Shown: positions 2,646 through 18,347 of the stretch, in pieces
Layout of the letters: each line of letters starts with the position of its first letter
Numbering within the stretch: position 1 is the stretch's first letter
IMG/VR virus record: IMGVR_UViG_3300032245_000902
Coordinates: 1-64,000 of that record
DNA: 64,000 nt
Source: a virus
Taxonomy: Duplodnaviria > Caudoviricetes
Direction: 5' to 3' (one strand)
Notes under the pieces: model-generated
What the model was told of the DNA's origin: nothing
Databases searched by the model: none
What the model saw: only the letters and a program-made list of their open reading frames with translations
Made by a program: the position numbers and the translations under genes

Positions 2646-2647
2646 TT

Positions 2648-2866: not shown

Positions 2867-3099
2867 TACCGTATATTGGATACATTCAAGCCAAAAGGTC
2901 TTTGGCATTGGCAAAAGAAACCATCGCTATGATGGGCGATTCTACCAATTATATGTTAGAGGCACAGAAAGATATGCTTGAATTGGAAGTGGAACATTTC
3001 CGTGAGGCATCTGTCAAGTTTACCATAGTTCTATTGACTGTGATTGTGTTTTGTGTTACACTAGTATATCTATTCGATAAAGGAATATTCCATGTTTGA
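2863..3099 (+). CDS. Small hypothetical membrane protein
   Basis: C-terminal hydrophobic helix; overlaps both neighbours. Confidence 0.65.
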   Translation: MIPYIGYIQAKRSLALAKETIAMMGDSTNYMLEAQKDMLELEVEHFREASVKFTIVLLTVIVFCVTLVYLFDKGIFHV

Positions 3100-3343
3100 T
3101 AAATTACACAATTGGGCTGTCAAGAATACAATCAATATTTTGATATTTTTAATATTGTTATCTGCTGTTATTACAGTCTATAATTTGGTTGATGTGGTTC
3201 GTAAACCCGCAACTATCAATATTATTGAAGGCAGTATTCAACACCGATTGGTTTGGTCAGCTAAAGGTGAATGTTTTTTTGTCAGGCCATTTTCAAATGA
3301 AACTGTATATTTAATCCGTGTTAATGATTGTGATAAGAAATGA
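3092..3343 (+). CDS. Small hypothetical membrane-anchored protein
   Basis: N-terminal TM segment; AAGGA upstream of the start. Confidence 0.65.
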   Translation: MFDKLHNWAVKNTINILIFLILLSAVITVYNLVDVVRKPATINIIEGSIQHRLVWSAKGECFFVRPFSNETVYLIRVNDCDKK

Positions 3344-3501
3344 AACCAAATAAAGATTTTAAATTAAGTAAATCAGCAAAGCGACGTTTAGCTACCATGT
3401 CATCAAGTGTTCGTGGTTTATGGAAGAAACTATATATTGAAGCAGAGTTAGCTGAGAAGCAAGCAAAGTTTGCAAAAATTCGTGAACCTAAAGGAGAGTA
3501 A
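3340..3501 (+). CDS. Small basic hypothetical protein, 53 aa (not in the ORF track)
   Basis: Read by hand: MKPNKDFKLSKSAKRRLATMSSSVRGLWKKLYIEAELAEKQAKFAKIREPKGE. ATGA overlap upstream; fills the gap and contains the SD of the next gene. Confidence 0.7.
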   Translation: MKPNKDFKLSKSAKRRLATMSSSVRGLWKKLYIEAELAEKQAKFAKIREPKGE

Positions 3502-3503
3502 TA

Positions 3504-3773
3504 ATGAGTTTATTTGTTGAAGTGTTTTCTGTTGAAAAACAATGTATGGTGATTGTGAATTTAGATACAGTTATTGAGATTGCACCCTTATCGATTGGTG
3601 GTTGTGCTATTTTCTTTGCTGATGGTACTGGTGGTAAAATATCAATGCGTGTGAAAGAAGATTATAACCTTTTCAAACAATTTGTTTTGCAAACAGTATC
3701 AACAGAAGATATTGAAAAGAAATTTGGTAAAACAAAAGTCAAAGATTTAACAATGGATATTCCTAAGTTGTAA
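3504..3773 (+). CDS. Hypothetical protein
   Basis: 89-aa ORF preceded by AAGGAG. Confidence 0.75.
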   Translation: MSLFVEVFSVEKQCMVIVNLDTVIEIAPLSIGGCAIFFADGTGGKISMRVKEDYNLFKQFVLQTVSTEDIEKKFGKTKVKDLTMDIPKL

Positions 3774-4057
3774 TGAACGATTTATTATATAATGTATTTG
3801 ATTGGATTCGTGATGATTGGAAGTCAGGTAGGGTTAGGTTCGTTGTTGAAATATTGGCGTGGGCAATCTCCATTGGATGTTCTATTACAATGGCTCTCAC
3901 CGTTCCTAACCCACCGTTACTCATCTTATATCCAATCTGGATTGCTGGGTGTGCTATGTACCTGTGGTGTGCTTTTACTCGCAAATCTTTTGGGATGGTT
4001 GCTAATTACTTGTTACTTACTACTATTGATACAATCGGCTTAATTAGAATGCTATGA
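3773..4057 (+). CDS. Small multi-pass membrane protein
   Basis: Three hydrophobic segments; TAATG coupling to the upstream gene. Confidence 0.7.
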   Translation: MNDLLYNVFDWIRDDWKSGRVRFVVEILAWAISIGCSITMALTVPNPPLLILYPIWIAGCAMYLWCAFTRKSFGMVANYLLLTTIDTIGLIRML

Positions 4058-4641
4058 ATATTTTTTACCTTGATAATGATCCTGTGAAGTGTGCAGAAAT
4101 GCACGTTGATAAACATTGCATAAAGATGATACTTGAATATGCTCAATTACTTTCTACCGCACACCGTGTGCTTGACGGTGTTCTTACTGATGGTGTATCT
4201 CAGTCTGGTCGCAAACGGAAGCTATATGTTCTCTCTGATAACCGTGATTCGATATTGTATTCTGCCACCCATATTAATCATCCTTCTGCTGTATGGTGCA
4301 GACAATCTGATTCAAACTATATTTGGTTGAGTAAACTATTATTGGCCTGTTGTAAAGAATATACCTATCGTTATGGTAAAGTGCATAAATGTGAAGAAAG
4401 TGGTTTAGTCAAAGCATTGTTTCATAATACACCAAAAAATATTCCAAAAGGGGGTTTTACAGGTCCAACACCTGCCATGCCTGATGAATGTAAAGTACCA
4501 GGGGATGCCTTACAATCCTATCATAACTACTATGTGATGAAAAAACAACATTTGTGGTCATGGAAAGGAAAGATAAATAGTAGGACAGAACCTAAATGGT
4601 TTACTAAAATGGTTGAACCCTTATCTTATGGATACTCTTAA
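4054..4641 (+). CDS. Pyrimidine dimer DNA glycosylase / DenV-related protein
   Basis: MNIFYLD..P..CA..H.DKH..KM..E..QLLSTAH, THINHP..VW, EY..RYGKVH, P.AMPD signature. Confidence 0.75.
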   Translation: MNIFYLDNDPVKCAEMHVDKHCIKMILEYAQLLSTAHRVLDGVLTDGVSQSGRKRKLYVLSDNRDSILYSATHINHPSAVWCRQSDSNYIWLSKLLLACCKEYTYRYGKVHKCEESGLVKALFHNTPKNIPKGGFTGPTPAMPDECKVPGDALQSYHNYYVMKKQHLWSWKGKINSRTEPKWFTKMVEPLSYGYS

Positions 4642-4919
4642 TGCCAGCATATGAATTTTTAAATAAAGATACAAATGAGATTGAAACTCACATCATGTCT
4701 TATACTGTTTACGACCAATTCAAAGTGGATAATCCACACCTAGAACGATTTATCTCAGCAAAAAATCTTCCTGTTTTTGGTGACGGCACTCGTATGTCGG
4801 TACCAGGAATTGGACAGCCTCATGCCGCTTTTGAACATGGGGTTATTCAAAGAATGAAAGAAACCATTCCTGGTAATACTATGTCTGGTCACAAGACGAA
4901 AAAACCAAGAGAATGGTAA
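4641..4919 (+). CDS. Hypothetical protein (MPxYEF start, degenerate FmdB-like)
   Basis: TAATG coupling; late-promoter-like GATAAATA at 4572-4579. Confidence 0.7.
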   Translation: MPAYEFLNKDTNEIETHIMSYTVYDQFKVDNPHLERFISAKNLPVFGDGTRMSVPGIGQPHAAFEHGVIQRMKETIPGNTMSGHKTKKPREW

Positions 4920-4944
4920 TATTTTTGTACAGGAAGTGGTAATC

Positions 4945-5331
4945 ATGGATTTTAATTTTACAACATTAAATTATGATATAGATTTTACATATTGTTTTCC
5001 ATATGGCCTACATGACATACCGCAAATTGAGGTTCTAAGTGGTGATTATCTTGGATTAAAATTCGATTTGAAATCTTCTGCTGTATCTAGTAAATATGAA
5101 AATAATCAAATTAAACATGCATTATCGTATGAATATGTTATACACAATATGTGGCTAAATGTATCAAAACAACAATTTGACGGTAAACATATCACATTAA
5201 ATGAAAAAGACCAAAATGTCATACACAATTTGGTGTACAATTACATCAAACATTTTACAGAAGAACAAACCAAAATTAGTGTATCACAAAGTTCAAATAT
5301 AGATAAAAAAATAACAAATTATATAGTATAA
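4945..5331 (+). CDS. Hypothetical protein
   Basis: AGGAAG 8 nt before ATG 4945; track ORF 4936-5331. Confidence 0.6.
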   Translation: MDFNFTTLNYDIDFTYCFPYGLHDIPQIEVLSGDYLGLKFDLKSSAVSSKYENNQIKHALSYEYVIHNMWLNVSKQQFDGKHITLNEKDQNVIHNLVYNYIKHFTEEQTKISVSQSSNIDKKITNYIV

Positions 5332-5334
5332 ATA
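5327..5334 (+). promoter_or_regulatory. T4-type late promoter (TATAAATA)
   Basis: Exact T4 gp55 consensus 36 nt upstream of the ATG at 5371. Confidence 0.75.
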
Positions 5335-5370
5335 TATCGTTATGTATATATTAAACTTTAGGGGCATTGG

Positions 5371-6417
5371 ATGACAACACCATCGGGTCAAATATCATTA
5401 AGTCAAGTAAATACTGAACTAGGCTTTTCTGCGGCCGCAACGATTACAATGAATGATACTGTAGTTCGAAGCCTTGCTGGTGTGCCTAGTGGTCAGATTA
5501 CTATGGCCAACTTGCAAAATAAATCTTCAGCATGGACAGGCACAATCTCTAGCAACCAGCAGCAGATGGATCTTTATTCTTTTGCAACCGGTAACGGATA
5601 TCCAGGTTCTGGTGTAGCTCAAATTACAGTAGCACCAGGTGTTTATATTTGGTCTGACAGTACCGGCGCTGCAGCCATGACAATTCCTAGTGGTTTTGGT
5701 GCTGGTAATTTAACCCTTACTAATAACGGTTACATCATGGGTAAGGGAGGCCGAGGCGGTAACGGCTCTGTTCCTGAAAACGGACTTCCTGGTGGACCAG
5801 CAATTAGTATTAGTCAACCTGTGACCATTAACAACACTAACGGCAGCGCATACATTGGTGGTGGTGGTGGTGGCGCTGGTTCTGGTAGAGCAGCAACACC
5901 AGTCTATGCGGGTGGCGGTGGTGGTGTTGGTGGTGGTGATGGTGGAAATGGTGGTGGTACTCCTGGTGCCGGCGGTACTGGTGGTTCTATTGGAAATTCT
6001 GGTACACCAAACGGAAACGGTGCTGGTGGTGGCGGTGGTGGCGGTAGAGTATTTCCAGGTTCCGCATCAGCTGGCGGATTCACCGGTGGTCAGGGTTGGC
6101 CTGGTGGTGGTAATGGTGGTAGAGTAGGTGTTGTAAATCCACGAACCGCAACAATCTCACAAGCATCTGGTGGTGGCGGTGGTGGTTGGGGTGCTGCAGG
6201 AGGCCAAGGATTATTTTTAATTTCACCAAGCGGGCCAGCAAATGCATCGGGTATTGGTGGTTCCGGCAACAACGTTGGTGGACCCGCATTTGCTGGAGTT
6301 GGTGGAACTAGCAATCCTCGTCCTGGAGGTAGTGGTGGTCCAGCTGTAAGTTTAAATGGAAATTCAGTAACATGGGTTAGTGGCGACACTGCCAGAGTAT
6401 GGGGATCAGTATCATAG
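5371..6417 (+). CDS. Glycine-rich tail fibre adhesin, gp38-like (T2/S16 type)
   Basis: NNGYIMGKGGRGG, AYIGGGGGG, several GGGGG runs, GGGGGGWGAAGG and C-terminal GGPAV...VTW...VWGSVS fit the polyglycine adhesin layout. Confidence 0.75.
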   Translation: MTTPSGQISLSQVNTELGFSAAATITMNDTVVRSLAGVPSGQITMANLQNKSSAWTGTISSNQQQMDLYSFATGNGYPGSGVAQITVAPGVYIWSDSTGAAAMTIPSGFGAGNLTLTNNGYIMGKGGRGGNGSVPENGLPGGPAISISQPVTINNTNGSAYIGGGGGGAGSGRAATPVYAGGGGGVGGGDGGNGGGTPGAGGTGGSIGNSGTPNGNGAGGGGGGGRVFPGSASAGGFTGGQGWPGGGNGGRVGVVNPRTATISQASGGGGGGWGAAGGQGLFLISPSGPANASGIGGSGNNVGGPAFAGVGGTSNPRPGGSGGPAVSLNGNSVTWVSGDTARVWGSVS

Positions 6418-6435
6418 GAAAAAATAGGAAAAAAT

Positions 6436-7347
6436 ATGAAAAAATACACATTAGAAAGCCGTGTTACGGGATTAAGAGAAGAATTTGAGTCTTTTTCAGA
6501 TGCAGAAAAAAGACAAGAAGAACTTTATAAAGAATATATTTTAGATTCTCAGTATCTATTTAATATTTGTATACAAGAGTCTAAAAACGGACAAGATTGG
6601 TCACAAACACTTTGCGACAAAAATGGCAATCCAATTCGAATCATTGACGATTGGTTTTATCTACCAATTAATACCGGTATTTGGGGTGATGCGACTGTTA
6701 TGCAGTTGGGCCCTACAGTTTCTATGGGGACACAAAAAGAAGATGATATTTGGTTGTGGATTGACAACGGTCCCAGTTATAATTCCGGTGGTCAAGGACT
6801 GTTAAGCCAATACGAAAACGCTTCTGGTAAGGTTCTTCTTGGTGGATTAGGTTTGGGTATGTTAGCACTCTTATTAGATAATAAACCAGAGGTTACAGAG
6901 GTTACCGTTGTTGAAATAAATCAAAACGTAATTGATGCATTTAATTCCAATAATTGGAAGACAAGTAAAGTTAATATTGTTTGTGCAGATATTTTAACGT
7001 TTGAAGGATCTGGTTATGATTGGGTGTTATTGGACCATTACAACCAAACACAAAGTATTGAACTATACAATACTTATTTGGAACATATGTCTATCATTAA
7101 TCAAAATATTTCATATAATAATTTAGATTTATTTGCTTGGGAAGATGCATACTATTATTGGTTGGAACAAGAAGGTAAAGAACGTGGATTAGAAAGTTAT
7201 ACCGAGTTTGCTAATACTCTAAACCTACCAATATATTCGATTGAAACTCTAAATAAATATTATAATGCTTATCTATCTAATGGATTACCTGTCAACACCA
7301 ATTTAGTAAACGCTTTAAGATCGGTGTATGAATTAAACAACGAATAA
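6436..7347 (+). CDS. Class I SAM-dependent methyltransferase (spermidine-synthase-like) with an extra N-terminal domain
   Basis: GKVLLGGLGLG motif I, VTVVEIN motif II, IVCADI, YDWVLLD. Confidence 0.75.
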   Translation: MKKYTLESRVTGLREEFESFSDAEKRQEELYKEYILDSQYLFNICIQESKNGQDWSQTLCDKNGNPIRIIDDWFYLPINTGIWGDATVMQLGPTVSMGTQKEDDIWLWIDNGPSYNSGGQGLLSQYENASGKVLLGGLGLGMLALLLDNKPEVTEVTVVEINQNVIDAFNSNNWKTSKVNIVCADILTFEGSGYDWVLLDHYNQTQSIELYNTYLEHMSIINQNISYNNLDLFAWEDAYYYWLEQEGKERGLESYTEFANTLNLPIYSIETLNKYYNAYLSNGLPVNTNLVNALRSVYELNNE

Positions 7348-7372
7348 CATATGTGAAGAAGGTATTTTTATT

Positions 7373-8011
7373 ATGGCAACTAAAAAACAATCAACAAAAT
7401 CTCCATCAACACCTTCAGAAATTTTGAATTCTTATGGTGCTTTATTTTGTAAAGATATTGTGTCCAAAGAAATGAGTAATTTTTTAACTCATGTATTACT
7501 AAGAAAATATGGTGTTGATGGTAGAGAAGGTGATGAACAAATACCAAATGCTCTTTCTTTAATTGATCATGATTTATTTTTAGAAACGTTACAAGAACAA
7601 ATTTGGCCAAAATTGGAATATATTTTAGGTGAAGAATTACTTCCAACATATTCTTATTCAAGACTATACAGTAACGGAGATATCTTAGAAAAACACACCG
7701 ATAGGCCGGCATGTGAAATAAGTATCACGGTACAATTGGGACGGTCACATAACTATGCGTGGCCAATTTATATGGGTGATTATAGATATGATTTGGTGGA
7801 AGGTGATGGTGTAATTTATAGAGGTTGTGATGTAGCTCATTGGCGTAATCCTTGTGATGGGCCAGATAATTACTATTCCGGCCAAGTGTTTTTCCATTTT
7901 GTAAGAAAAAACGGAAAAAACGCAAAACAGTTTTGTGATCCATCCAACAGAAAAGTAAATCCAAAAACTTTTTTTGTTAAAAATAGAACTCACCTAATGA
8001 ATTTAAAATGA
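7373..8011 (+). CDS. 2OG-Fe(II) oxygenase
   Basis: LPTYSYSRLY...L..HTDRPACEISIT, GDGVIYRG...HWR, QVFFHFV. Confidence 0.85.
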   Translation: MATKKQSTKSPSTPSEILNSYGALFCKDIVSKEMSNFLTHVLLRKYGVDGREGDEQIPNALSLIDHDLFLETLQEQIWPKLEYILGEELLPTYSYSRLYSNGDILEKHTDRPACEISITVQLGRSHNYAWPIYMGDYRYDLVEGDGVIYRGCDVAHWRNPCDGPDNYYSGQVFFHFVRKNGKNAKQFCDPSNRKVNPKTFFVKNRTHLMNLK

Positions 8012-8039
8012 ATTTTATGATTGAATATATAGAAAGATA

Positions 8040-8639
8040 ATGATGATTGCACCTATTCCTCCAAGAACACATACTGTAGAAGCTCCAGTAGCATATTGGG
8101 ATAGTTTTCTAACCCAACAAGACGTTGATACCATTTTATCTTTGCCGCAATGGCATGATTGTGAACCCGGTCAAATTGGTAAAACCAACGATGGAATTAT
8201 AGATACAAACATACGAAATAGTGGCATTGTTTGGTTTACTCCTTGTGAAAAAACAAACCATATCTGGTTAAAAATTACTAATGCTATCGCAGAAGTGAAC
8301 AATCAATTTTTTCACTTTGATTTAAAAGGATGTTACGAACCAGCACAATTATCAATTTATAGAGCTAAAGATAAAGAACATTATGGTTGGCATGTGGACC
8401 ATGGTATGGATACTTTGACTCCACGAAAACTATCAATGTCACTCTTATTAAGTGATACTAATGAATTTAAAGGTGGAGAACTTGAAGTTAAGACAATTAA
8501 TGATGATCCGTTAACACTAGACCAACGGCAGGGTAGAGCCTGGTTCTTTCCTTCATACACACTACATAGAGTAACACCGGTGACAAAAGGTGTGAGGCGT
8601 TCATTGGTTCTTTGGGTTGGTGGGCCTCCTTTTAAATAA
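8040..8639 (+). CDS. 2OG-Fe(II) oxygenase (PKHD/prolyl-hydroxylase-like)
   Basis: YGWHVD, RKLSMSLLLS, FKGGEL, FPSYTLHRVTPVTKGVRRSLVLW. Confidence 0.9.
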   Translation: MMIAPIPPRTHTVEAPVAYWDSFLTQQDVDTILSLPQWHDCEPGQIGKTNDGIIDTNIRNSGIVWFTPCEKTNHIWLKITNAIAEVNNQFFHFDLKGCYEPAQLSIYRAKDKEHYGWHVDHGMDTLTPRKLSMSLLLSDTNEFKGGELEVKTINDDPLTLDQRQGRAWFFPSYTLHRVTPVTKGVRRSLVLWVGGPPFK

Positions 8640-8653
8640 TATGAAAGCACATA

Positions 8654-10108
8654 ATGATATTTGAAATACACGCAGAAAGAAGTGCCAACGATAAAAAGAT
8701 TTTTTATTACGATAACATGACCAACACACTAAAAGATAGTGATGGCAATGTTTTTGAATATCCAAAAGAATCCTACTCAAAACCCGAGCAAAAAGAATTC
8801 AAACCATTTGATAAAAATAATCCATTGGTTAAATCGAAGTTAATAACTCATTTAAAGATTCAAATGGGTTTAAGTTGTAATTATTCATGTGATTATTGTT
8901 CCCAAAAATTCGTAGAAAGACCAAAAGAAACATCCAAAAAAGATATTGATGCATTTTTGGAAAAACTGGAAGTATTGGAGTTTGATGAACAAAAAGGATT
9001 AAAAATTGAATTTTGGGGTGGTGAACCTTTTGTTTATTGGAAAACCATGAAACCTTTGGCCGAAGCTTTAAGAGAAAAGTTTACAACATGGGTCAGAAAA
9101 CCACAATTCTCAGTAATTACAAACGGATCAATTTTAACCGATGATATTATTGATTGGTTAATGATGATGAATTTTAGTGTATCAATATCCCATGATGGAC
9201 CAGGTCAATATGTTAGGGGTCCGGATCCTTTCGATGATCCGGAACAAAAGAATAGACTTATTGGTTTCTATCGCATGATGACCAGATTGAAAAAAAGTAT
9301 TAGTTTCAATCCAATGATGAATTCTAAAAACAAAAGTCGTAAAGAAGTTCGTGACTGGTTTGTTAATATGATAGGTGATGAAAATGTCCAATTGGGTGAA
9401 GGTGGTATTGTAGATGCTTATGATGAAGATGGCATCACAAACTCATTACAATCTTTACAAGAACATTTTGAATATCGTAGAACTTCATTCTCTGATTTCT
9501 ACACTATGGGTCAAAAACTAAACTTTGTTGGCCAATTCAGTAAGATTGATGATTTAACTCGCAGAATATTGACGCATGAAGAAGCCAAATATCTGAATCA
9601 AAAATGTGGTATGGATGATGAACACACATTGGCAATTGATCTGCGTGGTAATGTTATGACCTGTCAGAATGTGAGTGCGTTAGAAGATTCTAAGAATGGT
9701 GAATCACATTTGGGCGGCACATTAGATGATTATGAAAATGTTAAATTAAAATCTTCTACACATTGGTCGAATCGTAAAGAATGTTCTGGTTGTCCAGTTC
9801 TTCATATTTGCAAAGGTGCTTGTATGTTCCTAGACAAGAAGTTTTGGGATATCTCCTGTGCAAATGCCTACTCAGATAATGTTCCATTGTTTGCTATATC
9901 TCTAACTAATATAACCAATGGATATGTTCCAACATTAATTAAGGCTGAAGGTTTACCATTGGAACGACAAGATATTTTTGGTACTATCTTTGAACATAAA
10001 GAAGATATCAAAAAGAAAATTATTCCAATTAAAGTTGTTAGTGAAAAAATTGGTGAGATTGAAGGTGTTGAGGTTTACGGCCGTGCGAAAATTGTTGAAA
10101 CAAAATGA
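8654..10108 (+). CDS. Radical SAM protein with SPASM domain
   Basis: CNYSCDYC, FWGGEP, ITNGS, ISHDGP; complete 7-Cys SPASM motif C-x13-G-x4-C...CSGC-x5-C-x3-C...C. Confidence 0.95.
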   Translation: MIFEIHAERSANDKKIFYYDNMTNTLKDSDGNVFEYPKESYSKPEQKEFKPFDKNNPLVKSKLITHLKIQMGLSCNYSCDYCSQKFVERPKETSKKDIDAFLEKLEVLEFDEQKGLKIEFWGGEPFVYWKTMKPLAEALREKFTTWVRKPQFSVITNGSILTDDIIDWLMMMNFSVSISHDGPGQYVRGPDPFDDPEQKNRLIGFYRMMTRLKKSISFNPMMNSKNKSRKEVRDWFVNMIGDENVQLGEGGIVDAYDEDGITNSLQSLQEHFEYRRTSFSDFYTMGQKLNFVGQFSKIDDLTRRILTHEEAKYLNQKCGMDDEHTLAIDLRGNVMTCQNVSALEDSKNGESHLGGTLDDYENVKLKSSTHWSNRKECSGCPVLHICKGACMFLDKKFWDISCANAYSDNVPLFAISLTNITNGYVPTLIKAEGLPLERQDIFGTIFEHKEDIKKKIIPIKVVSEKIGEIEGVEVYGRAKIVETK

Positions 10109-10833
10109 TTGACGTAATATTATATGTTGTATTGGTATCACATATAACAATGGCTTTTGTGTCACTCTATTTGCATAGACACCTAACACACAGACACTTT
10201 ATATTAAATAATACTTTTAGACATATCATTCGTTTTTATTTGTGGTTAACCGATGGAGTTATTGCAAAGACATGGGTTGCACAACACAGAAAACACCATA
10301 GATATACGGATGTTCAAGGTGATCCACATTCACCTTTAATTATTGGAAAATGGAAGGTAATTTATACCAGTCTAATACCAAATTATGTTAAGTTATATGG
10401 TTATTATGATACCGATTGGGCACTAGAATATTATAGTAAAGGAACTCCGGATGATTGGATAGAAAAAAATATCTATGAAAAATATCCTAGGGTTGGTTTA
10501 AATATATTTTTGTTAATTAATATTTGTTTGTTCGGATTGGTTCCTGGATTTTTGGCATGGTTAGTTCATCTATTTTGGGTACCTTTTTGCACCACAGCCT
10601 CAATTACAGGTTTTGCTCATTTGTTTGGTTACAAACATCCCGATTCATCCGATAATAGCCACAATTTATTTCCAATAGGTGTATTGTTATGTGGAGATGA
10701 ATTACATAATAATCATCATAAGCAGCCTAATAATCCAAATTTTGCACACCGTTGGTTTGAATTTGATTTAACATATTGGTATGCTAGAATTTTTGCAAAG
10801 ATGGGTCTTTTGACCTTTACAAAAAATGATTGA
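10105..10833 (+). CDS. Membrane fatty-acid desaturase family protein (Delta9-like), copy 1
   Basis: His boxes HRHLTH, HRKHH, HNNHH; DPHSP; FEFD; TM helices. Confidence 0.9.
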   Translation: MIDVILYVVLVSHITMAFVSLYLHRHLTHRHFILNNTFRHIIRFYLWLTDGVIAKTWVAQHRKHHRYTDVQGDPHSPLIIGKWKVIYTSLIPNYVKLYGYYDTDWALEYYSKGTPDDWIEKNIYEKYPRVGLNIFLLINICLFGLVPGFLAWLVHLFWVPFCTTASITGFAHLFGYKHPDSSDNSHNLFPIGVLLCGDELHNNHHKQPNNPNFAHRWFEFDLTYWYARIFAKMGLLTFTKND

Positions 10834-11545
10834 ATATTTCATTTTGTATGTATTGATTACAACACATATCACAACAGTATTTTTTAGTTTGTATGTACAT
10901 AGGAGTTTAGCACACAAGCAATTTGAATTTCATCCTAAAATGGTTTCATTTATAAAATTTTGGTTGTGGTTGACCGATGGTTCCGGTGTGAGAGAATGGG
11001 TTGCAATACACCACGACCATCATAAGTATTCGGATAAAAAAGGTGACCCACATTTCTCATTTGTATCTGGATCAATATGGAACAGATTAAAGTCTATATT
11101 TGTTGTGTCGTTAAAATCCATATTTTTAGGTTATAGAAACTTTGCTACCGACCAACAAATTCAGTCATATGCAAATCACGTGTCTGGTGATTGGACTGAA
11201 AAATATCAAAGAATTGGTATTTTTATTTTACTAATTTTGAATATTATTCTGTTTGGTTATTGGGGCATATTGTCGTGGTTAATACAGATATCTTGGGCAA
11301 CCATTTGGTTAACAGTAATTGTGGCTATTGGAGCTCACCATTTTGGTTATCGTGAAAACGATTCTGATGATAACAGTAGAAATTTATGGCCTTTGGCAAT
11401 ACTGGTTGCAGGTGAAGAATTACACCACAATCACCACAAAAATACGAAAAATCCAAACTATAGAAATAAATGGTTTGAATTAGACTTAGGATGGCAATAC
11501 ATAAAAGTTCTAAGATTATTAGGATTAATTAAGATAAATACTTGA
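10826..11545 (+). CDS. Membrane fatty-acid desaturase family protein (Delta9-like), copy 2
   Basis: His boxes HRSLAH, HHDHH, HHNHH; GEELH; FELDLGW. Confidence 0.9.
   Translation: MIEYFILYVLITTHITTVFFSLYVHRSLAHKQFEFHPKMVSFIKFWLWLTDGSGVREWVAIHHDHHKYSDKKGDPHFSFVSGSIWNRLKSIFVVSLKSIFLGYRNFATDQQIQSYANHVSGDWTEKYQRIGIFILLILNIILFGYWGILSWLIQISWATIWLTVIVAIGAHHFGYRENDSDDNSRNLWPLAILVAGEELHHNHHKNTKNPNYRNKWFELDLGWQYIKVLRLLGLIKINT
11533..11540 (+). promoter_or_regulatory. Putative late promoter (GATAAATA)
   Basis: One mismatch to TATAAATA, 26 nt upstream of ATG 11567. Confidence 0.55.
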
Positions 11546-11566
11546 AAATAGTAAAAAGGTGAAAAA

Positions 11567-12469
11567 ATGACATTACCAGCTTCAGGACAAATAGGAATAT
11601 CAGATATTAATGTGGAAATAGGTCAAGCACCAACCTATTCCTCAAGCCTGAATTTTTTAAATAATCTGATTAAACCGGCCCAAAGACCAGCAGTTCCGGC
11701 CATTTCAGGTTTTTATTCTAAATCCTACTACCAAAGCACCACCGAAGGAAATTGTAATGCTGGAAATTGCAATTGTTCTGCTAATTGTGGTAATGTCAAC
11801 TGCAATCAATGTGCTTATGTCAGCACAATTAATTGTTCAAATTGTGATACACAATCTTGGTTACAAAGTGGAACAAACTGTGCATGTACCTACAATTGCA
11901 CATATGCTGAAACAAGTTATGCGTGTAATTGTACCTGTGCTTGTAGTAAAATTATTTGTACCAAATTATTCCAAATGGGTATGATGCCTTACGGTATATT
12001 TGTTGCAGACCAAGAATATGGTGAATGGCTTAAGAAGAATGACCGTGTTGTTTACAGAGGATATATTCGTTGGGCTAAAACTGTTACTGCATGGATGGAC
12101 GAAAAGGGTCCAGATTTCATGTTATGGGTATCTAAAGAAAACCGTAAACAAAAACAAAAAGAAGCAACCACAAAGTGGGCTCATTTAATTGTAACCCCTT
12201 GGTCTCACCACATGGCATATCTAATGGGTGCAGTTAAAACTGATGATGAAGTTGGTCGTTTATTAATGAAGATTGGTCGACCAATTTGCCGAGCTGTATT
12301 CTTACTACCAAAAGACTATGAATTGGGTTTATTGGGTTCATACATGATGTGGACACTATGTTTAGGTAGTTATGGCCTATCTAGTGCATATGTAAAAACC
12401 AAGACAAAATTAAAATCATTAAAAAATAATTTTATCAATAAAATTAAATTACTTTATCAAGGTCAATAA
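11567..12469 (+). CDS. Asn/Cys-rich protein: adhesin-like N-terminus, 15-Cys core, KIICT C-terminal domain; candidate radical SAM substrate
   Basis: N-terminus resembles ORF 5371; residues 63-126 hold 15 Cys; AAGGTG upstream of the start. Confidence 0.8.
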   Translation: MTLPASGQIGISDINVEIGQAPTYSSSLNFLNNLIKPAQRPAVPAISGFYSKSYYQSTTEGNCNAGNCNCSANCGNVNCNQCAYVSTINCSNCDTQSWLQSGTNCACTYNCTYAETSYACNCTCACSKIICTKLFQMGMMPYGIFVADQEYGEWLKKNDRVVYRGYIRWAKTVTAWMDEKGPDFMLWVSKENRKQKQKEATTKWAHLIVTPWSHHMAYLMGAVKTDDEVGRLLMKIGRPICRAVFLLPKDYELGLLGSYMMWTLCLGSYGLSSAYVKTKTKLKSLKNNFINKIKLLYQGQ

Positions 12470-12470
12470 T

Positions 12471-12827
12471 ATGACAAACTTTACTGCCGCTAATACAGAA
12501 ATTTTATCACCTAAAGATTTTGTCATACAAGATGTTGATGTTTATACTGAACACATGGATTATTATTTTGATGTTCAAATAAATGAAACAGCAAAACAAT
12601 TTTCTCCAGAAGAAAAAGATGAAATGTTTCACATGTTTCATGAACATTCTGATATCATTAAAAAATTAATTCACGCAAAAATTCCTTTGGTTGAATATGT
12701 GTTAGGAAATCCTTGGCCTCCAAAAGAAATTTTTGAAGATCCAAAATATGCACACATTAAAGTAAGAGAGTATGACTGTTGGTTAATTGCTGCATATGAA
12801 GAATGGAAAAAGTCTAAAGGGCTATAA
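12471..12827 (+). CDS. Hypothetical acidic protein
   Basis: 118-aa ORF starting 1 nt after the Cys-rich gene. Confidence 0.75.
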   Translation: MTNFTAANTEILSPKDFVIQDVDVYTEHMDYYFDVQINETAKQFSPEEKDEMFHMFHEHSDIIKKLIHAKIPLVEYVLGNPWPPKEIFEDPKYAHIKVREYDCWLIAAYEEWKKSKGL

Positions 12828-12841
12828 TTAAAAATAATATT

Positions 12842-13432
12842 ATGAACATAGTGAGAAATGATTGGTGGACTACACCAGTCTGGGAAATACAAACAGACTT
12901 TGACGAAAAATTTAATAATAATTTACTCAGAGAAGCAAATTCAAGTAACCACATTAATGTATGGAATAATGATACACCATGTATCAATGAACTGAAACAA
13001 TATACTATAGATATTGTAACACAACTGGCATCTCCTTACATCTCTCAAAACTTCCGAGATTTTACATTTTGGCACACTAATGGGTGGATAAATTATCTAC
13101 ACCCAGGTAAACATATGCCTATACATGGCCATGGTGGACCTAAGATTGCTTTGACATATTACATTAAAGCTCAAGAAAATTCTGGTGATTTACTTCTGAT
13201 TGATCCTAGAGGTGGTTGTGATTGGGACAATGGTACTGATGGAGTAAACGGTACAAAGTTCAAAAGAATTAAACCAGCAGAAAGTAAATTGGTATTTTTT
13301 CCTGGTTTTGTTTTACACACAATAGAATCCAATCAATCAAGTGAAACACGAGTATCTTTGTCCAGCAATTTAGGAACATTTGATAGTGATAATGTAACAA
13401 AGAAATTATACGATTCACTTAAAAATGAATAA
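12842..13432 (+). CDS. Putative 2OG-Fe(II) oxygenase (TIGR02466-like)
   Basis: W.N......HGH, YYIK, SGDL...DPR, LVFFP.F..H....N.S...RVSLS.N. Confidence 0.85.
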   Translation: MNIVRNDWWTTPVWEIQTDFDEKFNNNLLREANSSNHINVWNNDTPCINELKQYTIDIVTQLASPYISQNFRDFTFWHTNGWINYLHPGKHMPIHGHGGPKIALTYYIKAQENSGDLLLIDPRGGCDWDNGTDGVNGTKFKRIKPAESKLVFFPGFVLHTIESNQSSETRVSLSSNLGTFDSDNVTKKLYDSLKNE

Positions 13433-13973
13433 TCTATTTTGTAAACTAAACAAAAATTTTCTGATTAATGATTATGTTGTCTATGATATGCAACAACAAT
13501 TTGGTCAAGAAGATAATGGTGAATTCATTGGTATTCGGTATAGTAATGTTGATTTTAAAAATAAAAATGATATTATGAATATAATACCTAGAGCTTATCA
13601 CTCTTGTTTTTTTATGACAATCATGCGGATTAATACAACAATACCACCTCACACCGATAGTGGTATCAAATCAACAATTAATTTTTATATTAAAACAGAT
13701 GATTGTATCACACAATTTTATAAGTATAAAACAAACACACCAAAAAAACGGCAAATTGAAAATCAAACAAACGGTTACATATTTGATATAAATGATTTGG
13801 AAGAAATGGATTCTTTTCTTGCCAAACCTACCGAAGCATGGGTATTAAATGTATCAGAACCACATTCAGTTATACCAAAATATGAATTTAAAGATAGATT
13901 AGCTATTGCCTTATCTTCAGAATTAGATTATAATACGGTGTGTGATATATTAAAAGAAGAAGGACACCTGTAA
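13425..13973 (+). CDS. Cupin / 2OG-Fe(II) oxygenase-like protein
   Basis: IPPHTD, INFY, WVLNVSEPHSV, RLAIALS (HxD...H...R). Confidence 0.7.
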   Translation: MNNLFCKLNKNFLINDYVVYDMQQQFGQEDNGEFIGIRYSNVDFKNKNDIMNIIPRAYHSCFFMTIMRINTTIPPHTDSGIKSTINFYIKTDDCITQFYKYKTNTPKKRQIENQTNGYIFDINDLEEMDSFLAKPTEAWVLNVSEPHSVIPKYEFKDRLAIALSSELDYNTVCDILKEEGHL

Positions 13974-14755
13974 TGTTTTATGAAAAATTAGATTTTATTG
14001 AGTTTGATTTGGAAAAATTAAGAGATGATGTGAGAAACCATGTCTTTACTTTAGGCAACCAAGTATTACAAGGTGAAGAATTTGAAACTCCACAATATCA
14101 TGGATTTGGTGGTTGGAGTTTGTTAAGTAGAACTGGTGAATGGCAAGATGGTTTTGAATTCTTCCAAACTGGTGAGAATGAGGAATTTCAAGATGATTTT
14201 TTCCCTAAAGGTCAAAATAATTTTAAAGTATTAAAATATTTAAATGTTGCACATTCAATGGAGTATAAAAATCCTACACAGGCTTGTGTTGGTGAAATAA
14301 AAAATGTGATAGACCAAATTGAATCTTATGGTTTTTATCCTAGAAGAGCAAGAGTAACTTGCTTGCAAGCTGGTTGTAAATCATTGGTGCATAGTGATGG
14401 ACCACAATCAGAATATATTGCTCGTATTCACATACCTTTGTTTACAAATAAAAAGTGTGTTTTCATATGTGATGGTGTGGATTTACACATGGAAGCCGGA
14501 TCAGTTTACATGGTGTGGGTAAACACATGGCACCAAATAAGAAATGATTCAGATGAAGATAGATATCACATTATCATTGATGCTTATGATACAAAACATA
14601 TAACAAAGAATTTTAAATATGAAGGTGATATTAAACAGTTGGAACAATATGCAGAAGAATATAGAAAAAATTTAAATGAAACAATTGTTACTGAAGAAGA
14701 TATTATAAAATTTGAAAAGATAAAAGAAAAGTATATAACAAAAAATGACATTTAA
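13973..14755 (+). CDS. Aspartyl/asparaginyl beta-hydroxylase-like oxygenase
   Basis: RARVTCL..G.....HSD, RIHIPLFTN, HMEAGSVY.V.....HQIRN.S.EDRYHIIID. Confidence 0.8.
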   Translation: MFYEKLDFIEFDLEKLRDDVRNHVFTLGNQVLQGEEFETPQYHGFGGWSLLSRTGEWQDGFEFFQTGENEEFQDDFFPKGQNNFKVLKYLNVAHSMEYKNPTQACVGEIKNVIDQIESYGFYPRRARVTCLQAGCKSLVHSDGPQSEYIARIHIPLFTNKKCVFICDGVDLHMEAGSVYMVWVNTWHQIRNDSDEDRYHIIIDAYDTKHITKNFKYEGDIKQLEQYAEEYRKNLNETIVTEEDIIKFEKIKEKYITKNDI

Positions 14756-15413
14756 TTACTGCCCACCTAAATCATTACCAGACTTAAAGTCCGAAACCTT
14801 TCCTGACGGCAAGAGATACTATACATTAGAAGATGGTACAAAACTTCCATCGGTTACTACTGTGCTTGGCGCCCAAAAGAAGGCAGGTATTATGGCATGG
14901 CGTAAGAAGGTGGGTGAAGAAGAAGCTAACCGAGTATCGAGAATTGCAACAGGTCGTGGTACCGCAGTCCATACATTATGTGAGAATTATTTAAACAATA
15001 ATGATTTAGGTTCTGCAATGCCAGATGCACTTGAAATGTTCCTATCTCTCAAGCCATTACTTAATCGTATCAACAACATACATTACCAAGAGTGTGCATT
15101 GTGGTCCAAACAATTGGAGATGGCGGGTAGGGTTGATTGTATTGCTGAGTTCGATGGCAAGTTATCTGTGATTGACTTTAAGACCTCCAAGCGTGCCAAG
15201 ACAGAGGCACACATTGAGGATTACTTCTGGCAAACAACCGCATATGCCTTGATGTATGAGGAGATGATTGGTACACCTATTGATGATATCATTATTATTA
15301 TGGCTGTGGAGAATGACCTGCCATTAATATTTAAACAGAAAACCGCTGACCACATACCTGGATTGGTGAAAGCAATAAATTATTACAAAGAGAGTTCTAC
15401 AAAGCATAAATAA
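14745..15413 (+). CDS. PD-(D/E)XK exonuclease of T4-like phages
   Basis: PSVTTVL, RGT.VH...E, AGRVDCIAE, VIDFKTS, Q..AY. Confidence 0.85.
   Translation: MTFNYCPPKSLPDLKSETFPDGKRYYTLEDGTKLPSVTTVLGAQKKAGIMAWRKKVGEEEANRVSRIATGRGTAVHTLCENYLNNNDLGSAMPDALEMFLSLKPLLNRINNIHYQECALWSKQLEMAGRVDCIAEFDGKLSVIDFKTSKRAKTEAHIEDYFWQTTAYALMYEEMIGTPIDDIIIIMAVENDLPLIFKQKTADHIPGLVKAINYYKESSTKHK
15405..15412 (+). promoter_or_regulatory. Putative late promoter (CATAAATA)
   Basis: One mismatch to consensus; directly precedes a structured leader and ORF 15470. Confidence 0.55.
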
Positions 15414-15469
15414 AACACCAGCAACACACAAACCGCTGGTATACACACAACACACAGAAGGAGAAGTAA

Positions 15470-15748
15470 ATGAGTATGACACCCTACGAGATACGGCTAG
15501 AACTCTTAAAAATGGCCAAAGATATGCTCTCTGATGAGTATTACGGCAAAAGAGAAATTATATCAAACCAGTGGTCAACCAAGGTAGAAGAATCCAAAAT
15601 TAATGGAACAACTTCACCAGAACATCCAGGTTACCCATCATTCCCCACCGAAGAAGAAATTGTAAAGAAAGCGGAAGCTCTTAATCAATTTGTTTCTCAA
15701 ACCCCTCCACAACCTGAAGTTAAAATAAAATCGAAAACGAATTCGTAA
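15470..15748 (+). CDS. Hypothetical phage protein (PYEIRLELLKMA...A..L..FV type)
   Basis: Strong AAGGAG SD; 92 aa. Confidence 0.85.
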   Translation: MSMTPYEIRLELLKMAKDMLSDEYYGKREIISNQWSTKVEESKINGTTSPEHPGYPSFPTEEEIVKKAEALNQFVSQTPPQPEVKIKSKTNS

Positions 15749-15801
15749 TTGGAGACCAAGGCGGTCAGATGTTTGGCCGCCGTAATCAAAAAGGAAGAAA
15801 G

Positions 15802-16353
15802 ATGTCTTTCAACAAAAAAGTAACAAACAAGTTTTTAATTGGCACATCAATATTTTTAATTATAATTAATTTATTGGTACCTGCTGCCCAAGCGTATGCA
15901 CAAAATAACGAAAACTCAGTTGAGGTCGTTAGTGCCCATTTCAATTCAGAACTACAATGTCTTGCTGAAAATGTTTACTATGAATCATCCAAAGAATCAT
16001 TCGAAGGTAAACTAGCAGTAGCACAGGTCACAATGAACCGTGTAAATTCTGGTAAATTTCCATCCACAATTTGTGGTGTGGTAAAACAAAAGAGTGTCAT
16101 CAATGGTGTAATGGTATGCCAGTTCTCCTGGTTTTGTAATCAAGCATATATCAAACTGGTTCGTAACCCATACCAATGGGAAGAATCTTTGGTGGTTGCG
16201 AGAAAAGCCTTGACATCCGCCATTGCCCATGATACACTATATCATTCGAAAGCAATGTATTTCCATGCCAATTATGTTAATCCTAATTGGAACTTGACAA
16301 AGGTTACACAGATTGGTAACCATATATTTTATAAAGAGAAGAATAGAATTTAA
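15802..16353 (+). CDS. Cell wall hydrolase, SleB/Hydrolase_2 family, with N-terminal signal or TM segment
   Basis: CLAENVYYES, AVAQVTMNRV, FPSTICGVV.Q, CQFSW, YFHA.YV.P.W, IGNHIFY; AAGGAAG before ATG 15802. Confidence 0.9.
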   Translation: MSFNKKVTNKFLIGTSIFLIIINLLVPAAQAYAQNNENSVEVVSAHFNSELQCLAENVYYESSKESFEGKLAVAQVTMNRVNSGKFPSTICGVVKQKSVINGVMVCQFSWFCNQAYIKLVRNPYQWEESLVVARKALTSAIAHDTLYHSKAMYFHANYVNPNWNLTKVTQIGNHIFYKEKNRI

Positions 16354-16354
16354 T

Positions 16355-16576
16355 ATGCCAACTAAAGATGAGATCCGTGATTTTAGTATATTAGTAGAAG
16401 AACTTTCAACCAGATATCGTTGCAATAGAATGGATGCAATACTACAACATTGTAAAGATACTGGTTTGGAAGTTGAAGTGGCATCCACATTAATTTCTTC
16501 TGCATTGAAAGCAAAGATTAAAGAAGAAGCACAAGAATTAAATTTGATTAAGAAAAGTTCAAAGCTACCTATATGA
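16355..16576 (+). CDS. 33: Late transcription co-activator gp33
   Basis: F...VE.......MDAI..C....LE.E....LIS..LK.KI..EA..LN; lies upstream of gp59 and gp32; ATG at 16355. Confidence 0.85.
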   Translation: MPTKDEIRDFSILVEELSTRYRCNRMDAILQHCKDTGLEVEVASTLISSALKAKIKEEAQELNLIKKSSKLPI

Positions 16577-17148
16577 TTGAATTGGTACAAGTTACCACAC
16601 AAGAACAAAAGAATATTGTCAAAGAAATAATTGAAACTCATCACTCTTATGTGGCATCCAATTCATCGGTTGGTCGCAGAATAGATTGGCTGATTTATAT
16701 TGATGATGATATGTTGGGTGAGTGTATTGGTATGATTGGTGTTGGTTCATCTGTCTACCCACCACCCAAAGATATACTGAATTATCTTGGTGTATCAAAA
16801 TTTGAATACAAAGACCAGTTTAATAACATCGCCAACAACTGGAGGTTCTGTTTCTCTAAGTCGATTAAGAACGCAGGCACACAAGTATTAAAACAATTAC
16901 GGCAGAAGGCACCAATCGCATGGAAACAAAAATATGGTGATGATTTAAAACACATCATTACATTTGTTGGTGCAGGTAAGAATGGTGCAGTATACTTGGC
17001 AGATAATTGGAAGAAGATTGGTGAAACGGCAGGATTACCGGCACACAAAAGCAGTTCTATGAAATGGCATGATAATGCCGAATTGAAAAAGTTATTTGTT
17101 AAACCAACAGGCGAAAACAAAAAGATTATATTGATTAAATCGTTATGA
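16573..17148 (+). CDS. Mom-like / DUF4338 (DruA-like) GNAT-fold protein, possible DNA-modifying enzyme
   Basis: HHSY.....GR, NNWRF, and GAVY.A.NW..IG.T.G motif. Confidence 0.6.
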   Translation: MIELVQVTTQEQKNIVKEIIETHHSYVASNSSVGRRIDWLIYIDDDMLGECIGMIGVGSSVYPPPKDILNYLGVSKFEYKDQFNNIANNWRFCFSKSIKNAGTQVLKQLRQKAPIAWKQKYGDDLKHIITFVGAGKNGAVYLADNWKKIGETAGLPAHKSSSMKWHDNAELKKLFVKPTGENKKIILIKSL

Positions 17149-18249: not shown

Positions 18250-18274
18250 CAATGGATAAATATTGTGATATAGT
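18246..18274 (+). promoter_or_regulatory. Sigma70-type promoter for gene 32, with an embedded late-promoter-like GATAAATA
   Basis: TTGACA (18246-18251), 17-nt spacer ending in TGn, TATAGT (18269-18274); GATAAATA at 18255-18262. Confidence 0.75.
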
Positions 18275-18347
18275 AGTTGATTATGAGCAGTAATTTGAAA
18301 GTAGTTTATATTCCGTTAATACTCCGTTTAATACGAAAGGCAACATC

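Follow-up and report, generated by a model that had tools for sequence, protein, structure and literature searches.

A 64,000-nucleotide stretch of DNA from a tailed phage (positions 1 to 64,000 of IMG/VR record IMGVR_UViG_3300032245_000902; hereafter the window) carries a gene for a radical S-adenosylmethionine (SAM)/SPASM enzyme and, downstream of it, a gene for a Cys-rich protein with a segment dominated by Asn and Cys. We designate these genes, like their neighbours, by their start positions (8654 and 11567, Table 1). As our strongest result, the enzyme appears to represent a large, uncharacterised family of phage radical SAM/SPASM proteins that is specifically paired with fibre-type proteins bearing Asn-Cys repeats. 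We consider it fairly probable that the two genes form the functional unit and that the maturase acts on a late-expressed fibre-type protein via its Asn-Cys segment. An earlier note on this DNA had read 9.4 kb around both genes as a cluster similar to those for peptides made on ribosomes and modified after translation (RiPPs), a late tailoring pathway for the receptor-binding tip. Its observations were confirmed in part and its interpretation found partial support; the conserved unit proved to be smaller, and far more widespread, than it had proposed.

Pairing of the enzyme gene with genes for Asn-Cys proteins

The assignment of 8654 to the radical SAM/SPASM proteins, already made in the earlier note, was readily corroborated. 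The core domain scored 37.1 bits against PF04055 (cut-off 29.5), which places the protein in the superfamily, and residues 318–393 scored 35.1 bits against the SPASM model TIGR04085 (cut-off 27). Among 44 sequences, the three cysteines of the C-x3-C-x2-C motif (Cys75, Cys79 and Cys82) were invariant, as were seven cysteines of SPASM type (Cys318, 337, 377, 380, 386, 390 and 402). The best-scoring NCBIfam models were peptide maturases, namely PapB, QhpD, geopeptide, nif11-like and YhhB maturases, followed by CcpM and SCIFF, and the closest solved chains were 8vpo and CteB (5wgg). Judged from its sequence, the enzyme is a SPASM maturase of an uncharacterised family. Relatives are encoded in at least 568 viral-contig loci and at least 214 genome-contig loci.

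Close relatives were collected by scanning IMG/VR with the radical SAM protein, which gave 109 confirmed loci, 80 of which were kept. When the window proteins were compared by BLASTP with the open reading frames (ORFs) of these loci, 72 of the 80 loci showed a homologue of the Cys-rich protein. Of the remaining eight, two lie on contigs that stop at the enzyme gene or shortly beyond it and two on contigs that start within that gene; the other four belong to the distant group described below. The Cys gene lies directly 3′ or directly 5′ of the enzyme gene, or is separated from it only by desaturase genes. Among non-redundant close loci, a gene with the Cys/Asn motif stands beside the enzyme gene in 50 of 54; of the four misses, three come from truncated contigs and one, L067, is due to the gene caller, its Cys ORF actually being present.

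The pairing also extends to distant relatives. A profile scan matched 592 stretches, at least 568 of which encode relatives of the enzyme; 79 loci were fetched (L093–L171), and 76 of these contained a recognisable radical SAM gene. In 61 of the 76, a same-strand upstream gene encodes C-x-C-x-C at or near the C-terminus, typically as a terminal ...NCNCNC, while the motif is present in 67 of the 872 called genes of these loci. With a slightly wider motif, 56 of 66 non-redundant distant loci were positive, the motif being present in 62 of 822 called genes; both gene counts are from enzyme-bearing loci. Eight of the ten misses have less than 2.1 kb of sequence upstream of the enzyme gene. Across the close and distant non-redundant loci, 112 of 113 motif genes are on the strand of the enzyme gene. 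The partner proteins range from 81 to 1082 amino acids (aa), and the distant partners that were tested match tail-fibre PHROGs (L148, for instance, phrog_9851 at 2.7e-200). A third collection, from bacterial genomes, yielded at least 214 confirmed radical SAM loci, 80 of which were kept and 78 of which had a recognisable enzyme ORF. In 60 of these 78, a same-strand ORF contains C-x-C-x-C together with at least two N-C pairs; in most cases this ORF has an N-C-rich tail at its end and is located upstream of the enzyme gene. These loci often come from Limnohabitans, Polynucleobacter and other Burkholderiales, isolates included. Conserved adjacency of maturase and motif gene, as in a RiPP-like pairing, was thus found in all three collections (50/54, 56/66 and 60/78).

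Individual loci illustrate the range of partners. In a tblastn search of cultured phages, Ralstonia phage RSP15 and two Achromobacter phages, JWF and 2-1, gave enzyme homologues (42–44% identity); the enzyme genes of RSP15 (ORF045) and JWF (gp030) lie just 3′ of tail-fibre genes. The side tail fibre (ORF048) of RSP15 (Ackermannviridae) has an N-C-x-C tail with the C-terminus NCQCGN. In JWF, a phage with a tape measure protein and a J-type fibre, gp028 contains an N-C repeat immediately before a Hint domain. The corresponding proteins of L151 and L156 similarly continue for 163 residues after the motif, and in L151, whose sequence was read, these residues are a Hint domain. Self-cleavage by Hint would leave the motif at the C-terminus in proteins of this type, and the Hint-fused forms, together with short forms of the Cys-rich protein (see below), suggest that a free C-terminal end matters. 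Three loci (L093, at 2868–3648, L157 and L170) contain three tandem genes of 81–107 aa, each ending N-C-N-C-x-C-N-C, upstream of Ig-like, oxygenase and radical SAM genes. A gene of 240–320 aa with a weak match to Ig-like domains recurs between fibre and enzyme genes in the distant loci; it is absent from the window contig. In Limnohabitans parvus II-B4 (L333, 1964–11579), an N-C-ended fibre-like gene is followed by three unknown genes, a 2-oxoglutarate (2OG) oxygenase gene directly before the enzyme gene, the radical SAM gene itself and a serine integrase gene. Matches of the neighbouring genes to tail-fibre families and serine integrase give this locus, from a cultured freshwater bacterium, the appearance of a prophage end.

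As a separate observation, the second gene after the radical SAM gene in L114 (7277–8221) encodes a TRAP-type periplasmic solute-binding protein (DctP, PF03480, E = 9.5e-43). At the positions corresponding to those in L114, genes of about 100, 315 and 345 aa recur across many loci among L094–L146, the family scan having been made for L114 only.

We found no description of a radical SAM enzyme paired with Asn-Cys-ended phage fibres in the literature searched, which lay mostly outside subscription journals. The accessible text of a pelagimyophage survey notes radical SAM cassettes in a "host recognition cluster" without interpreting them (PMC7029224), and a cyanophage paper names a radical SAM maturase as an antibiotic-synthesis gene (PMC12801897).

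The Cys-rich protein, its promoter and its companion genes

Residues 53–131 of the Cys-rich protein contain 16 Cys and 13 Asn. In 58 non-identical sequences (the window protein and 57 relatives) the Asn-Cys segment has a median of 78.5 residues, 16 Cys and 18 Asn, and Asn directly precedes 711 of the 998 Cys. The conserved unit of the putative substrate is the Asn-Cys pair. Homologues occur in three forms. The long form of about 300 aa, to which the window protein belongs, combines an N-terminal motif, the Asn-Cys segment and a domain starting K-I-I-C-T-K-L; the short form of 126–173 aa is encoded upstream of the enzyme gene, ends after the Asn-Cys segment and thus lacks the C-terminal domain.

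The N-terminus that the Cys-rich protein shares with the glycine-rich protein 5371, as the earlier note had noticed, was verified: 11 of 19 residues are identical (pairwise E = 0.008), with the common motif S-G-x-I..S..N.E.G. When the window and the 90.9 kb contig, which constitutes the whole assembly, were scanned, 5371 and 11567 were the only called genes with this motif at their start; the looser of the scans, that of the contig, additionally gave some matches in non-coding frames. Pelagibacter phage HTVC008M and Vibrio phage MS02 have matches to the motif beside genes of the tail fibre or baseplate. In the HTVC008M locus (L085, 5001–9764), gp065 carries the motif and follows baseplate wedge genes; it adjoins five opposite-strand genes of oxygenase type, four annotated as 2OG-Fe(II) oxygenase and one as "ferrochelatase". 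In the third form of the Cys-rich protein, seen in two relatives of about 365 aa (L050 and L053), the N-terminal motif, a part rich in glycine and the Asn-Cys segment are joined in one protein. BLASTP of 5371 against the glycine-rich part of L050 gave no similarity, so that the argument for a fusion rests on domain order and composition.

An AlphaFold model of the Cys-rich protein from 33 sequences had a mean predicted local distance difference test (pLDDT) value of 69.8. Residues 130–297 are all-helical, with 10-residue blocks from residue 131 at pLDDT 74–93. A Hint domain had been considered for the part beginning K-I-I-C-T-K-L; this idea was rejected because the model is all-helical and not the all-beta Hint fold. 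A Foldseek search of the PDB with the model returned nothing at E ≤ 0.001, and a wider structure search with the C-terminal domain was headed by the NEL-type E3 ligase domains of SlrP and SspH1 (Z 7.5 and 6.7), below significance for helical folds. Cys131 is invariant in this domain. Among predicted viral structures, the domain forms the end of larger phage proteins, for example a 616-residue entry, and tblastn matched it to a 616-aa protein of Synechococcus phage SynMITS9220M01 whose gene adjoins a "fiber protein" gene. In a metagenome protein of 367 aa (P0099), a Hint domain is directly followed by a K-K-I-I-C-T-K-L helical domain; the helical domain can therefore be regarded as a module able to sit after a self-cleaving element. 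In two further proteins (P0102 and P0103) it follows glycine-rich stretches.

The expression signals point to late transcription. The sequence that the earlier note read as a perfect T4 late promoter at the start of its island is present as TATAAATA; this 8-mer occurs once in the window versus 8.7 times in shuffles, which is not above chance, and alone it proves nothing. The 7-mer ATAAATA occurs 18 times, always on the + strand, against 34 expected over both strands, and is thus under-represented. Nine of the 18 copies sit 27–58 nt before gene starts (5371, 11567, 15470, 24684, 48781, 52314, 57722, 60029 and 62772), and sites near structural genes include those at 24643, 48729, 52277, 57681, 59985 and 62738. 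ATAAATA is probably the late promoter core of this phage, and its pattern would fit a NATAAATA late promoter. Because the 7-mer is strand-biased and clusters at this distance before gene starts, we recognise a second late-type promoter at 11534. Judged by sequence, signals of T4 late type (TATAAATA or NATAAATA shortly before a late gene) thus stand at 5327–5334 and 11534–11540, and the position of both genes with the shared N-terminus behind such signals was counted as support for the enzyme-substrate reading. In 57 of 73 related loci, ATAAATA is present no more than 100 nt upstream of the Cys-gene homologue, mostly at 24–33 nt. It precedes the enzyme gene in 15 of 78 loci and was found in none before the 118, 182, AspH, PDDEXK and desA genes, so that the substrate gene and the genes following it look like a late operon. 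The radical SAM gene, which in most relatives lies 5′ of the Cys-gene promoter, may be expressed earlier. A promoter and terminator scan of the island found sigma-70-like sites at chance frequency and no convincing + strand terminator.

The genes that accompany the pair in the window are partly conserved (Table 1). Five oxygenases had been proposed in the earlier note: 8040, 12842 and 13973 exceed their Pfam cut-offs, the last as a member of the Asp/Asn beta-hydroxylase (AspH) family; 7373 is recognised by PHROG and Atlas; and 13425 (182 aa) is a lead only, with Atlas values of 0.89–0.91 to clusters with Asp_Arg_Hydrox (13% of members) or 2OG-FeII_Oxy_3, and with H-T-D and a later His visible in its sequence. 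Both proposed desaturases exceed the PF00487 cut-off (29.7) and show the His boxes, which makes them members of that family; 10105 reached 247.7 bits against DesA_fam (cut-off 400), below the threshold for this equivalog. The 118-aa protein has no family match in Pfam, PHROG or NCBIfam.

Among 31 long-form loci with at least 5 kb of downstream sequence, homologues of the 182-aa protein and of the AspH-like protein occurred in all 31, 2OG-FeII_Oxy_5 in 30 and the 118-aa protein in 17; five of the loci had a desaturase. Across 75 non-redundant close loci, 18 have desaturase homologues within the cluster, at varying positions, and none has them in the flanks. A reverse search from the AspH-like protein gave 146 confirmed loci, 80 of which were kept; the enzyme gene and the motif gene were both present in every one of the 32 non-redundant loci that have at least 6 kb upstream. 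Common descent contributes to this result, since identity to the query is 58% or more in all these loci. For 13 of them the radical SAM gene was recognised by BLASTP, the motif regular expression having missed it; in a census of 2OG-FeII_Oxy_5-type genes the expression likewise passed over true genes in L023, L073, L077, L078, L083, L140, L158 and L167. In two distant loci (L093 and L148), the stretch that separates the fibre gene from the enzyme gene holds one to three PF13759 genes, and these occurrences in distant phages would be independent support for the oxygenase link. At 1e-5, tblastn with the AspH-like protein matched no cultured phage record.

Farther along, the window has genes for baseplate and fibre proteins of T4 type, and the closest cultured relatives of its gp6-like wedge protein are from Pelagibacter phages HTVC008M and Mosig and Methylophilales phage Melnitz (about 40% identity); we thus assign the window to a T4-like aquatic myophage. 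A megablast search with the 9.4 kb island matched zero phage records. All genes of the island are indeed on the + strand, as the earlier note stated; its boundaries are arbitrary, since + strand ORFs of at least 130 aa run throughout 55–19241, with a single exception of 135 aa (16237–16644) that overlaps + strand ORFs. Two genes further downstream were recorded in passing. A SleB-type cell wall hydrolase with a hydrophobic stretch at its N-terminus (15769–16353; PF07486, E = 4.4e-25) is kept downstream of the cluster in most related loci, and a 191-aa protein (16573–17148) matches the Druantia defence protein DruA (PF14236, 36.3 bits, cut-off 27) and has an 88%-identical homologue in L016.

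Table 1 Features of the window between the first late-promoter-like sequence and the AspH-like gene
Feature	Position	Strand	Basis
T4-type late-promoter-like TATAAATA	5327–5334	+	37 nt before gp38-like gene 5371
Glycine-rich gp38-like protein with N-terminal S-G-x-I..S..N.E.G motif	5371–6417	+	GP38 (below cut-off), PHROG tail-fibre
Possible class I SAM methyltransferase (weak)	6436–7347	+	MTS 16.8 bits; phrog_15480 5.2e-7
2OG-Fe(II) oxygenase-like protein	7373–8011	+	phrog_2954 1.4e-42; Atlas TM 0.82 to 2OG-FeII_Oxy_3 clusters
2OG-FeII_Oxy_3 oxygenase	8040–8639	+	PF13640 55.6 bits (cut-off 27)
Radical SAM/SPASM maturase (predicted), conserved enzyme of the system	8654–10108	+	PF04055, TIGR04085
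Fatty acid desaturase-family membrane protein A, occasional cluster member	10105–10833	+	PF00487 48.5 bits
Fatty acid desaturase-family membrane protein B	10826–11545	+	PF00487 52.5 bits
Late-promoter-like ATAAATA	11534–11540	+	27 nt before Cys-rich gene 11567
Cys-rich protein, N-terminal part with motif common to 5371	11567–11722	+	Motif scans, pairwise alignment
Cys-rich protein, Asn-Cys-rich segment (residues 53–127), proposed substrate	11723–11947	+	Composition, alignment of homologues
Cys-rich protein, helical C-terminal domain starting K-I-I-C-T-K-L and ending in a hydrophobic helix	11948–12469	+	AlphaFold
118-aa protein, frequent companion	12471–12827	+	Homologue in 17/31 long-form loci
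2OG-FeII_Oxy_5 oxygenase, companion	12842–13432	+	PF13759 48.7 bits
182-aa protein, probably double-stranded beta-helix oxygenase	13425–13973	+	Atlas lead
AspH-like oxygenase	13973–14755	+	PF05118 (Asp_Arg_Hydrox) 40.7 bits (cut-off 22.6)

Proposed maturation and competing explanations

From the adjacency described above we infer an enzyme-substrate relation. The enzyme would bind a Cys of the substrate at an auxiliary iron-sulfur (Fe-S) cluster and would then make covalent cross-links, most likely Cys-to-Asn thioethers, which would staple a segment that could not rely on disulfides in the reducing cytoplasm. Such stapling is proposed because the Asn-Cys pair is conserved and because NxxcB, PapB, CteB and QhpD provide precedent; other reactions on Cys are possible. 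The modified element is probably the host-binding end of a fibre, since the same enzyme family is paired with tail-fibre proteins ending ...NCNCNC. In the T4-like lineage the putative substrate carries a helical C-terminal domain, and the long form would be co-transcribed from the late promoter with the 118-aa protein, the 2OG-FeII_Oxy_5 enzyme, the 182-aa oxygenase-like protein and the AspH-like enzyme. The oxygenases of this lineage probably add hydroxylations or process the long form, and desaturase-family enzymes join the cluster in about a quarter of relatives. More tentatively, and with a confidence that stays short of even, we suggest that unrelated phages and prophages of freshwater Betaproteobacteria staple Asn-Cys fibre ends by thioethers, often with 2OG or AspH-type oxygenases.

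The closest models for this chemistry are peptide maturases. As described in the accessible text of PMC9389541, NxxcB forms a β-thioether from Cys to Asn within an NxxC motif, a spacing contained in N-C-N-C, and PapB and CteB form β- and γ-thioethers. The phage system has in common with these three the radical SAM core, the seven-Cys SPASM domain and the position of the enzyme gene beside a gene for a Cys-rich substrate. It differs from the ranthipeptide/SCIFF type in that the putative substrates, with lengths from 80 to more than 1000 aa, are proteins (tail fibres where tested) rather than short leader-core peptides, in that the motif lies at the C-terminus or in mid-protein, in being phage-encoded, and in that the enzyme scores far below the equivalog cut-offs. 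In the QhpD/QhpC system, which matures quinohemoprotein amine dehydrogenase, a radical SAM/SPASM enzyme is likewise present, and QhpD introduces its Cys thioethers into a structural protein subunit and not into a secreted peptide. The acceptors of QhpD are Asp and Glu, whereas here the acceptor would be Asn; moreover, the substrates are unrelated and a quinone cofactor context is lacking. Anaerobic sulfatase-maturating enzyme, as which the JWF homologue is annotated in GenBank, is also a SPASM radical SAM protein and acts on a Cys of a full-length protein. In contrast to this family, the window enzyme reached 49.5 bits against TIGR03942 (cut-off 349), and the sulfatase maturation motif, C-x-P/A-x-R, was found in none of the 18 Cys contexts of the Cys-rich protein. 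T4 fibre tips offer a structural parallel in the gp38-like nature of 5371, in the fibre ends of the relatives, which are rich in His, Asn and Cys, and in late promoter control. The T4 tips (gp37/gp12, and gp38 with its glycine-rich motifs) owe their stability to chaperones and to metal ions that they bind; they are not known to depend on a dedicated modifying enzyme, and we know of no enzyme gene that accompanies gp38. Finally, the accessible text of Iyer et al. (2010; PMC2938197) reports bacterial dioxygenases of the beta-hydroxylase family as neighbours of tail-collar and glycine-rich proteins and predicts them to modify peptides. These neighbourhoods resemble ours in linking AspH-type and 2OG dioxygenases to fibre-like and to glycine-rich proteins; they differ, within that text, in having no radical SAM/Asn-Cys pairing and no phage virion context.

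Several findings weigh against the proposed maturation. The enzyme stays far below every curated equivalog cut-off, including those of its best and second-best NCBIfam matches, PapB (84.6 bits vs 340, E = 7e-24) and QhpD (77.2 vs 453, E = 1e-21), as well as CcpM (61.3 vs 500) and SCIFF (55 vs 425); no reaction can therefore be assigned from family membership, and two distant homologues (L333 and L081) are likewise below the curated cut-offs. The Asn-Cys segment was modelled at low confidence (pLDDT below 50). A complex prediction of the enzyme with residues 1–130 of the Cys-rich protein, three 4Fe-4S clusters and SAM reached 0.12 against a mark of 0.32; it gave no verdict and was not used. As to a role in the virion, 11567 has no Pfam, PHROG or NCBIfam match and hence no match to a tail-fibre family, its gene is situated apart from the baseplate and fibre module that begins near 24 kb, and the protein ends in a hydrophobic helix. 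Two distant loci, L165 and L168, are true misses, with about 6.9 kb upstream and no motif gene, and part of the synteny among close relatives may be due to common descent because these are similar T4-like phages. The oxygenases appear dispensable. Of the short-form loci, 12 had sufficient downstream sequence; none of these encodes AspH or the 182-aa protein and two encode 2OG-FeII_Oxy_5, so that the AspH-like and 182-aa oxygenases go with the long form (31/31 vs 0/12) and not with the Asn-Cys segment itself. A 2OG-FeII_Oxy_5-type gene was present in 20 of 66 distant loci, and in the commonest distant arrangement there is mostly no gene between the Ig-like and radical SAM genes.

Among the alternatives, the one that survives best, though we regard it as unlikely, is that the Asn-Cys repeats are a metal- or Fe-S-binding element at the fibre axis and that the enzyme makes another modification of Cys or of the backbone. 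T4 fibres have His-x-His metal sites and C-x-C repeats are typical metal ligands; several partner fibres are His-rich just before the tail, and the placement of the enzyme outside all characterised equivalogs would agree with a different reaction. This explanation has to contend with the very specific co-occurrence of motif and SPASM family, with best curated matches that are Cys-directed peptide maturases, and with the conservation of Asn before Cys (711/998).

Slightly less probable still is the view closest to the earlier note, namely that the entire 9.4 kb is one late tailoring pathway maturing receptor-binding tips, including the gp38-like adhesin. All genes are on the same strand and follow a late-type promoter, the two proteins that are not enzymes have their N-terminus in common, L050 and L053 would fuse a glycine-rich part to the Cys/Asn domain, and the HTVC008M protein with the N-terminal motif stands beside its five oxygenase-type genes. 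The comparison of gene order, however, points elsewhere. Relatives have a 195-aa gene, a 92-aa gene and the enzyme gene in succession; in the window, 4936–8639 is inserted between the latter two, comprising a 131-aa ORF and the genes for the glycine-rich protein, the methyltransferase-like protein and two oxygenases. Homologues of the glycine-rich protein, 7373 and 8040 were found in 0 of 80 close loci, where the methyltransferase gave only a fragment-like match in L009; all four were absent from the 31 long-form loci. The methyltransferase is itself a weak call (Pfam MTS, below the cut-off of 23, besides a PHROG methyltransferase match), and 7373 has no Pfam match. As to 5371, GP38 (PF05268) gave 16.6 bits (cut-off 25, E = 0.0075); a precomputed list of the collection assigns PF05268 to it, and among its 1352 homologues all 120 listed carry the same precomputed assignment. 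Around gp38-like homologues in 26 IMG/VR loci there was no radical SAM, 7373, 8040 or 2OG-FeII_Oxy_5 gene, and the sole methyltransferase-like match was a 68-aa fragment in L259. The homologues often follow very large proteins and sometimes occur in tandem; within this set (L250–L275), several phages (for example L258, L259 and L271) have two to four gp38-like copies per locus, often after proteins of more than 1000 aa. Since these homologues occur elsewhere without the enzymes, we take 5371 as a gp38-like adhesin gene that landed here. On comparative grounds, 4936–8639 is a lineage-specific insertion outside the conserved system, and modification of 5371 by the adjacent enzymes finds no comparative support; the failure of BLASTP to relate 5371 to the L050 glycine-rich part points the same way. 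The RiPP-like layout of the earlier note is supported for the enzyme and the Cys-rich protein, which behave as a pair, and is not supported for the methyltransferase, 7373 and 8040; likewise, its late, non-independent pathway finds support for the core pair and for the AspH link (32/32), not for the 9.4 kb as a whole or for the adhesin.

We give somewhat less credence again to the idea that the Cys-rich protein of the window is a membrane-tethered or released RiPP-like product directed against the host envelope or competitors, with the shared N-terminus as leader. Its C-terminal hydrophobic helix, a helical domain of unknown function, the missing tail-fibre family match, the location in a variable region away from the structural module and the integral-membrane desaturase-family enzymes in the cluster are all compatible with this idea. 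On the other hand, the distant partners are tail-fibre proteins without this N-terminus, which is thus not needed for recognition; the Cys gene has a late-type promoter like structural genes; and the N-terminal motif and the C-terminal domain both occur in proteins within fibre or baseplate modules. Very improbable, finally, are unrelated auxiliary metabolic genes in a hypervariable region whose adjacency is synteny by descent: relatives of 12842 do occur in 25 cyanophage records that gave no radical SAM match, and the pelagimyophage survey, in its accessible text, treats radical SAM cassettes, desaturase and 2OG genes as variable content (PMC7029224), but the pairing recurs with varying gene order on unrelated backbones and in prophages, and the reverse AspH test was positive throughout. 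Independence of the enzymes from the Cys-rich and adhesin genes, which the earlier note had named as a refutation, was seen with respect to the adhesin, to which none was tied in the 26 loci, and for 12842 in cyanophages, whereas the radical SAM and AspH genes are tied to the Cys gene.

Implications for phage fibres

If the pairing of the maturase with Asn-Cys fibre proteins is functional, the range of substrates of radical SAM peptide maturases would extend to the fibres with which phages recognise their hosts, and a virion part assembled in the reducing cytoplasm would be stabilised by covalent, enzyme-made links. Genes at present annotated as "anaerobic sulfatase maturase", as "antibiotic synthesis" or as auxiliary metabolic genes would be reassigned, and some of the numerous 2OG-Fe(II), AspH-like and desaturase-like genes in variable regions of aquatic myophages would gain a suggested role. 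Because the enzyme family lies outside every curated maturase family, it may yield new cross-linking chemistry on a simple repeat motif. Cultured carriers exist in Ralstonia phage RSP15, Achromobacter phage JWF and prophages of Limnohabitans and Polynucleobacter. Should the broader suggestion of stapled fibre ends in unrelated phages and prophages be true, these proteins would constitute a new class of enzymatically matured virion proteins, and some unexplained 2OG oxygenase genes of aquatic phages would acquire a structural role.

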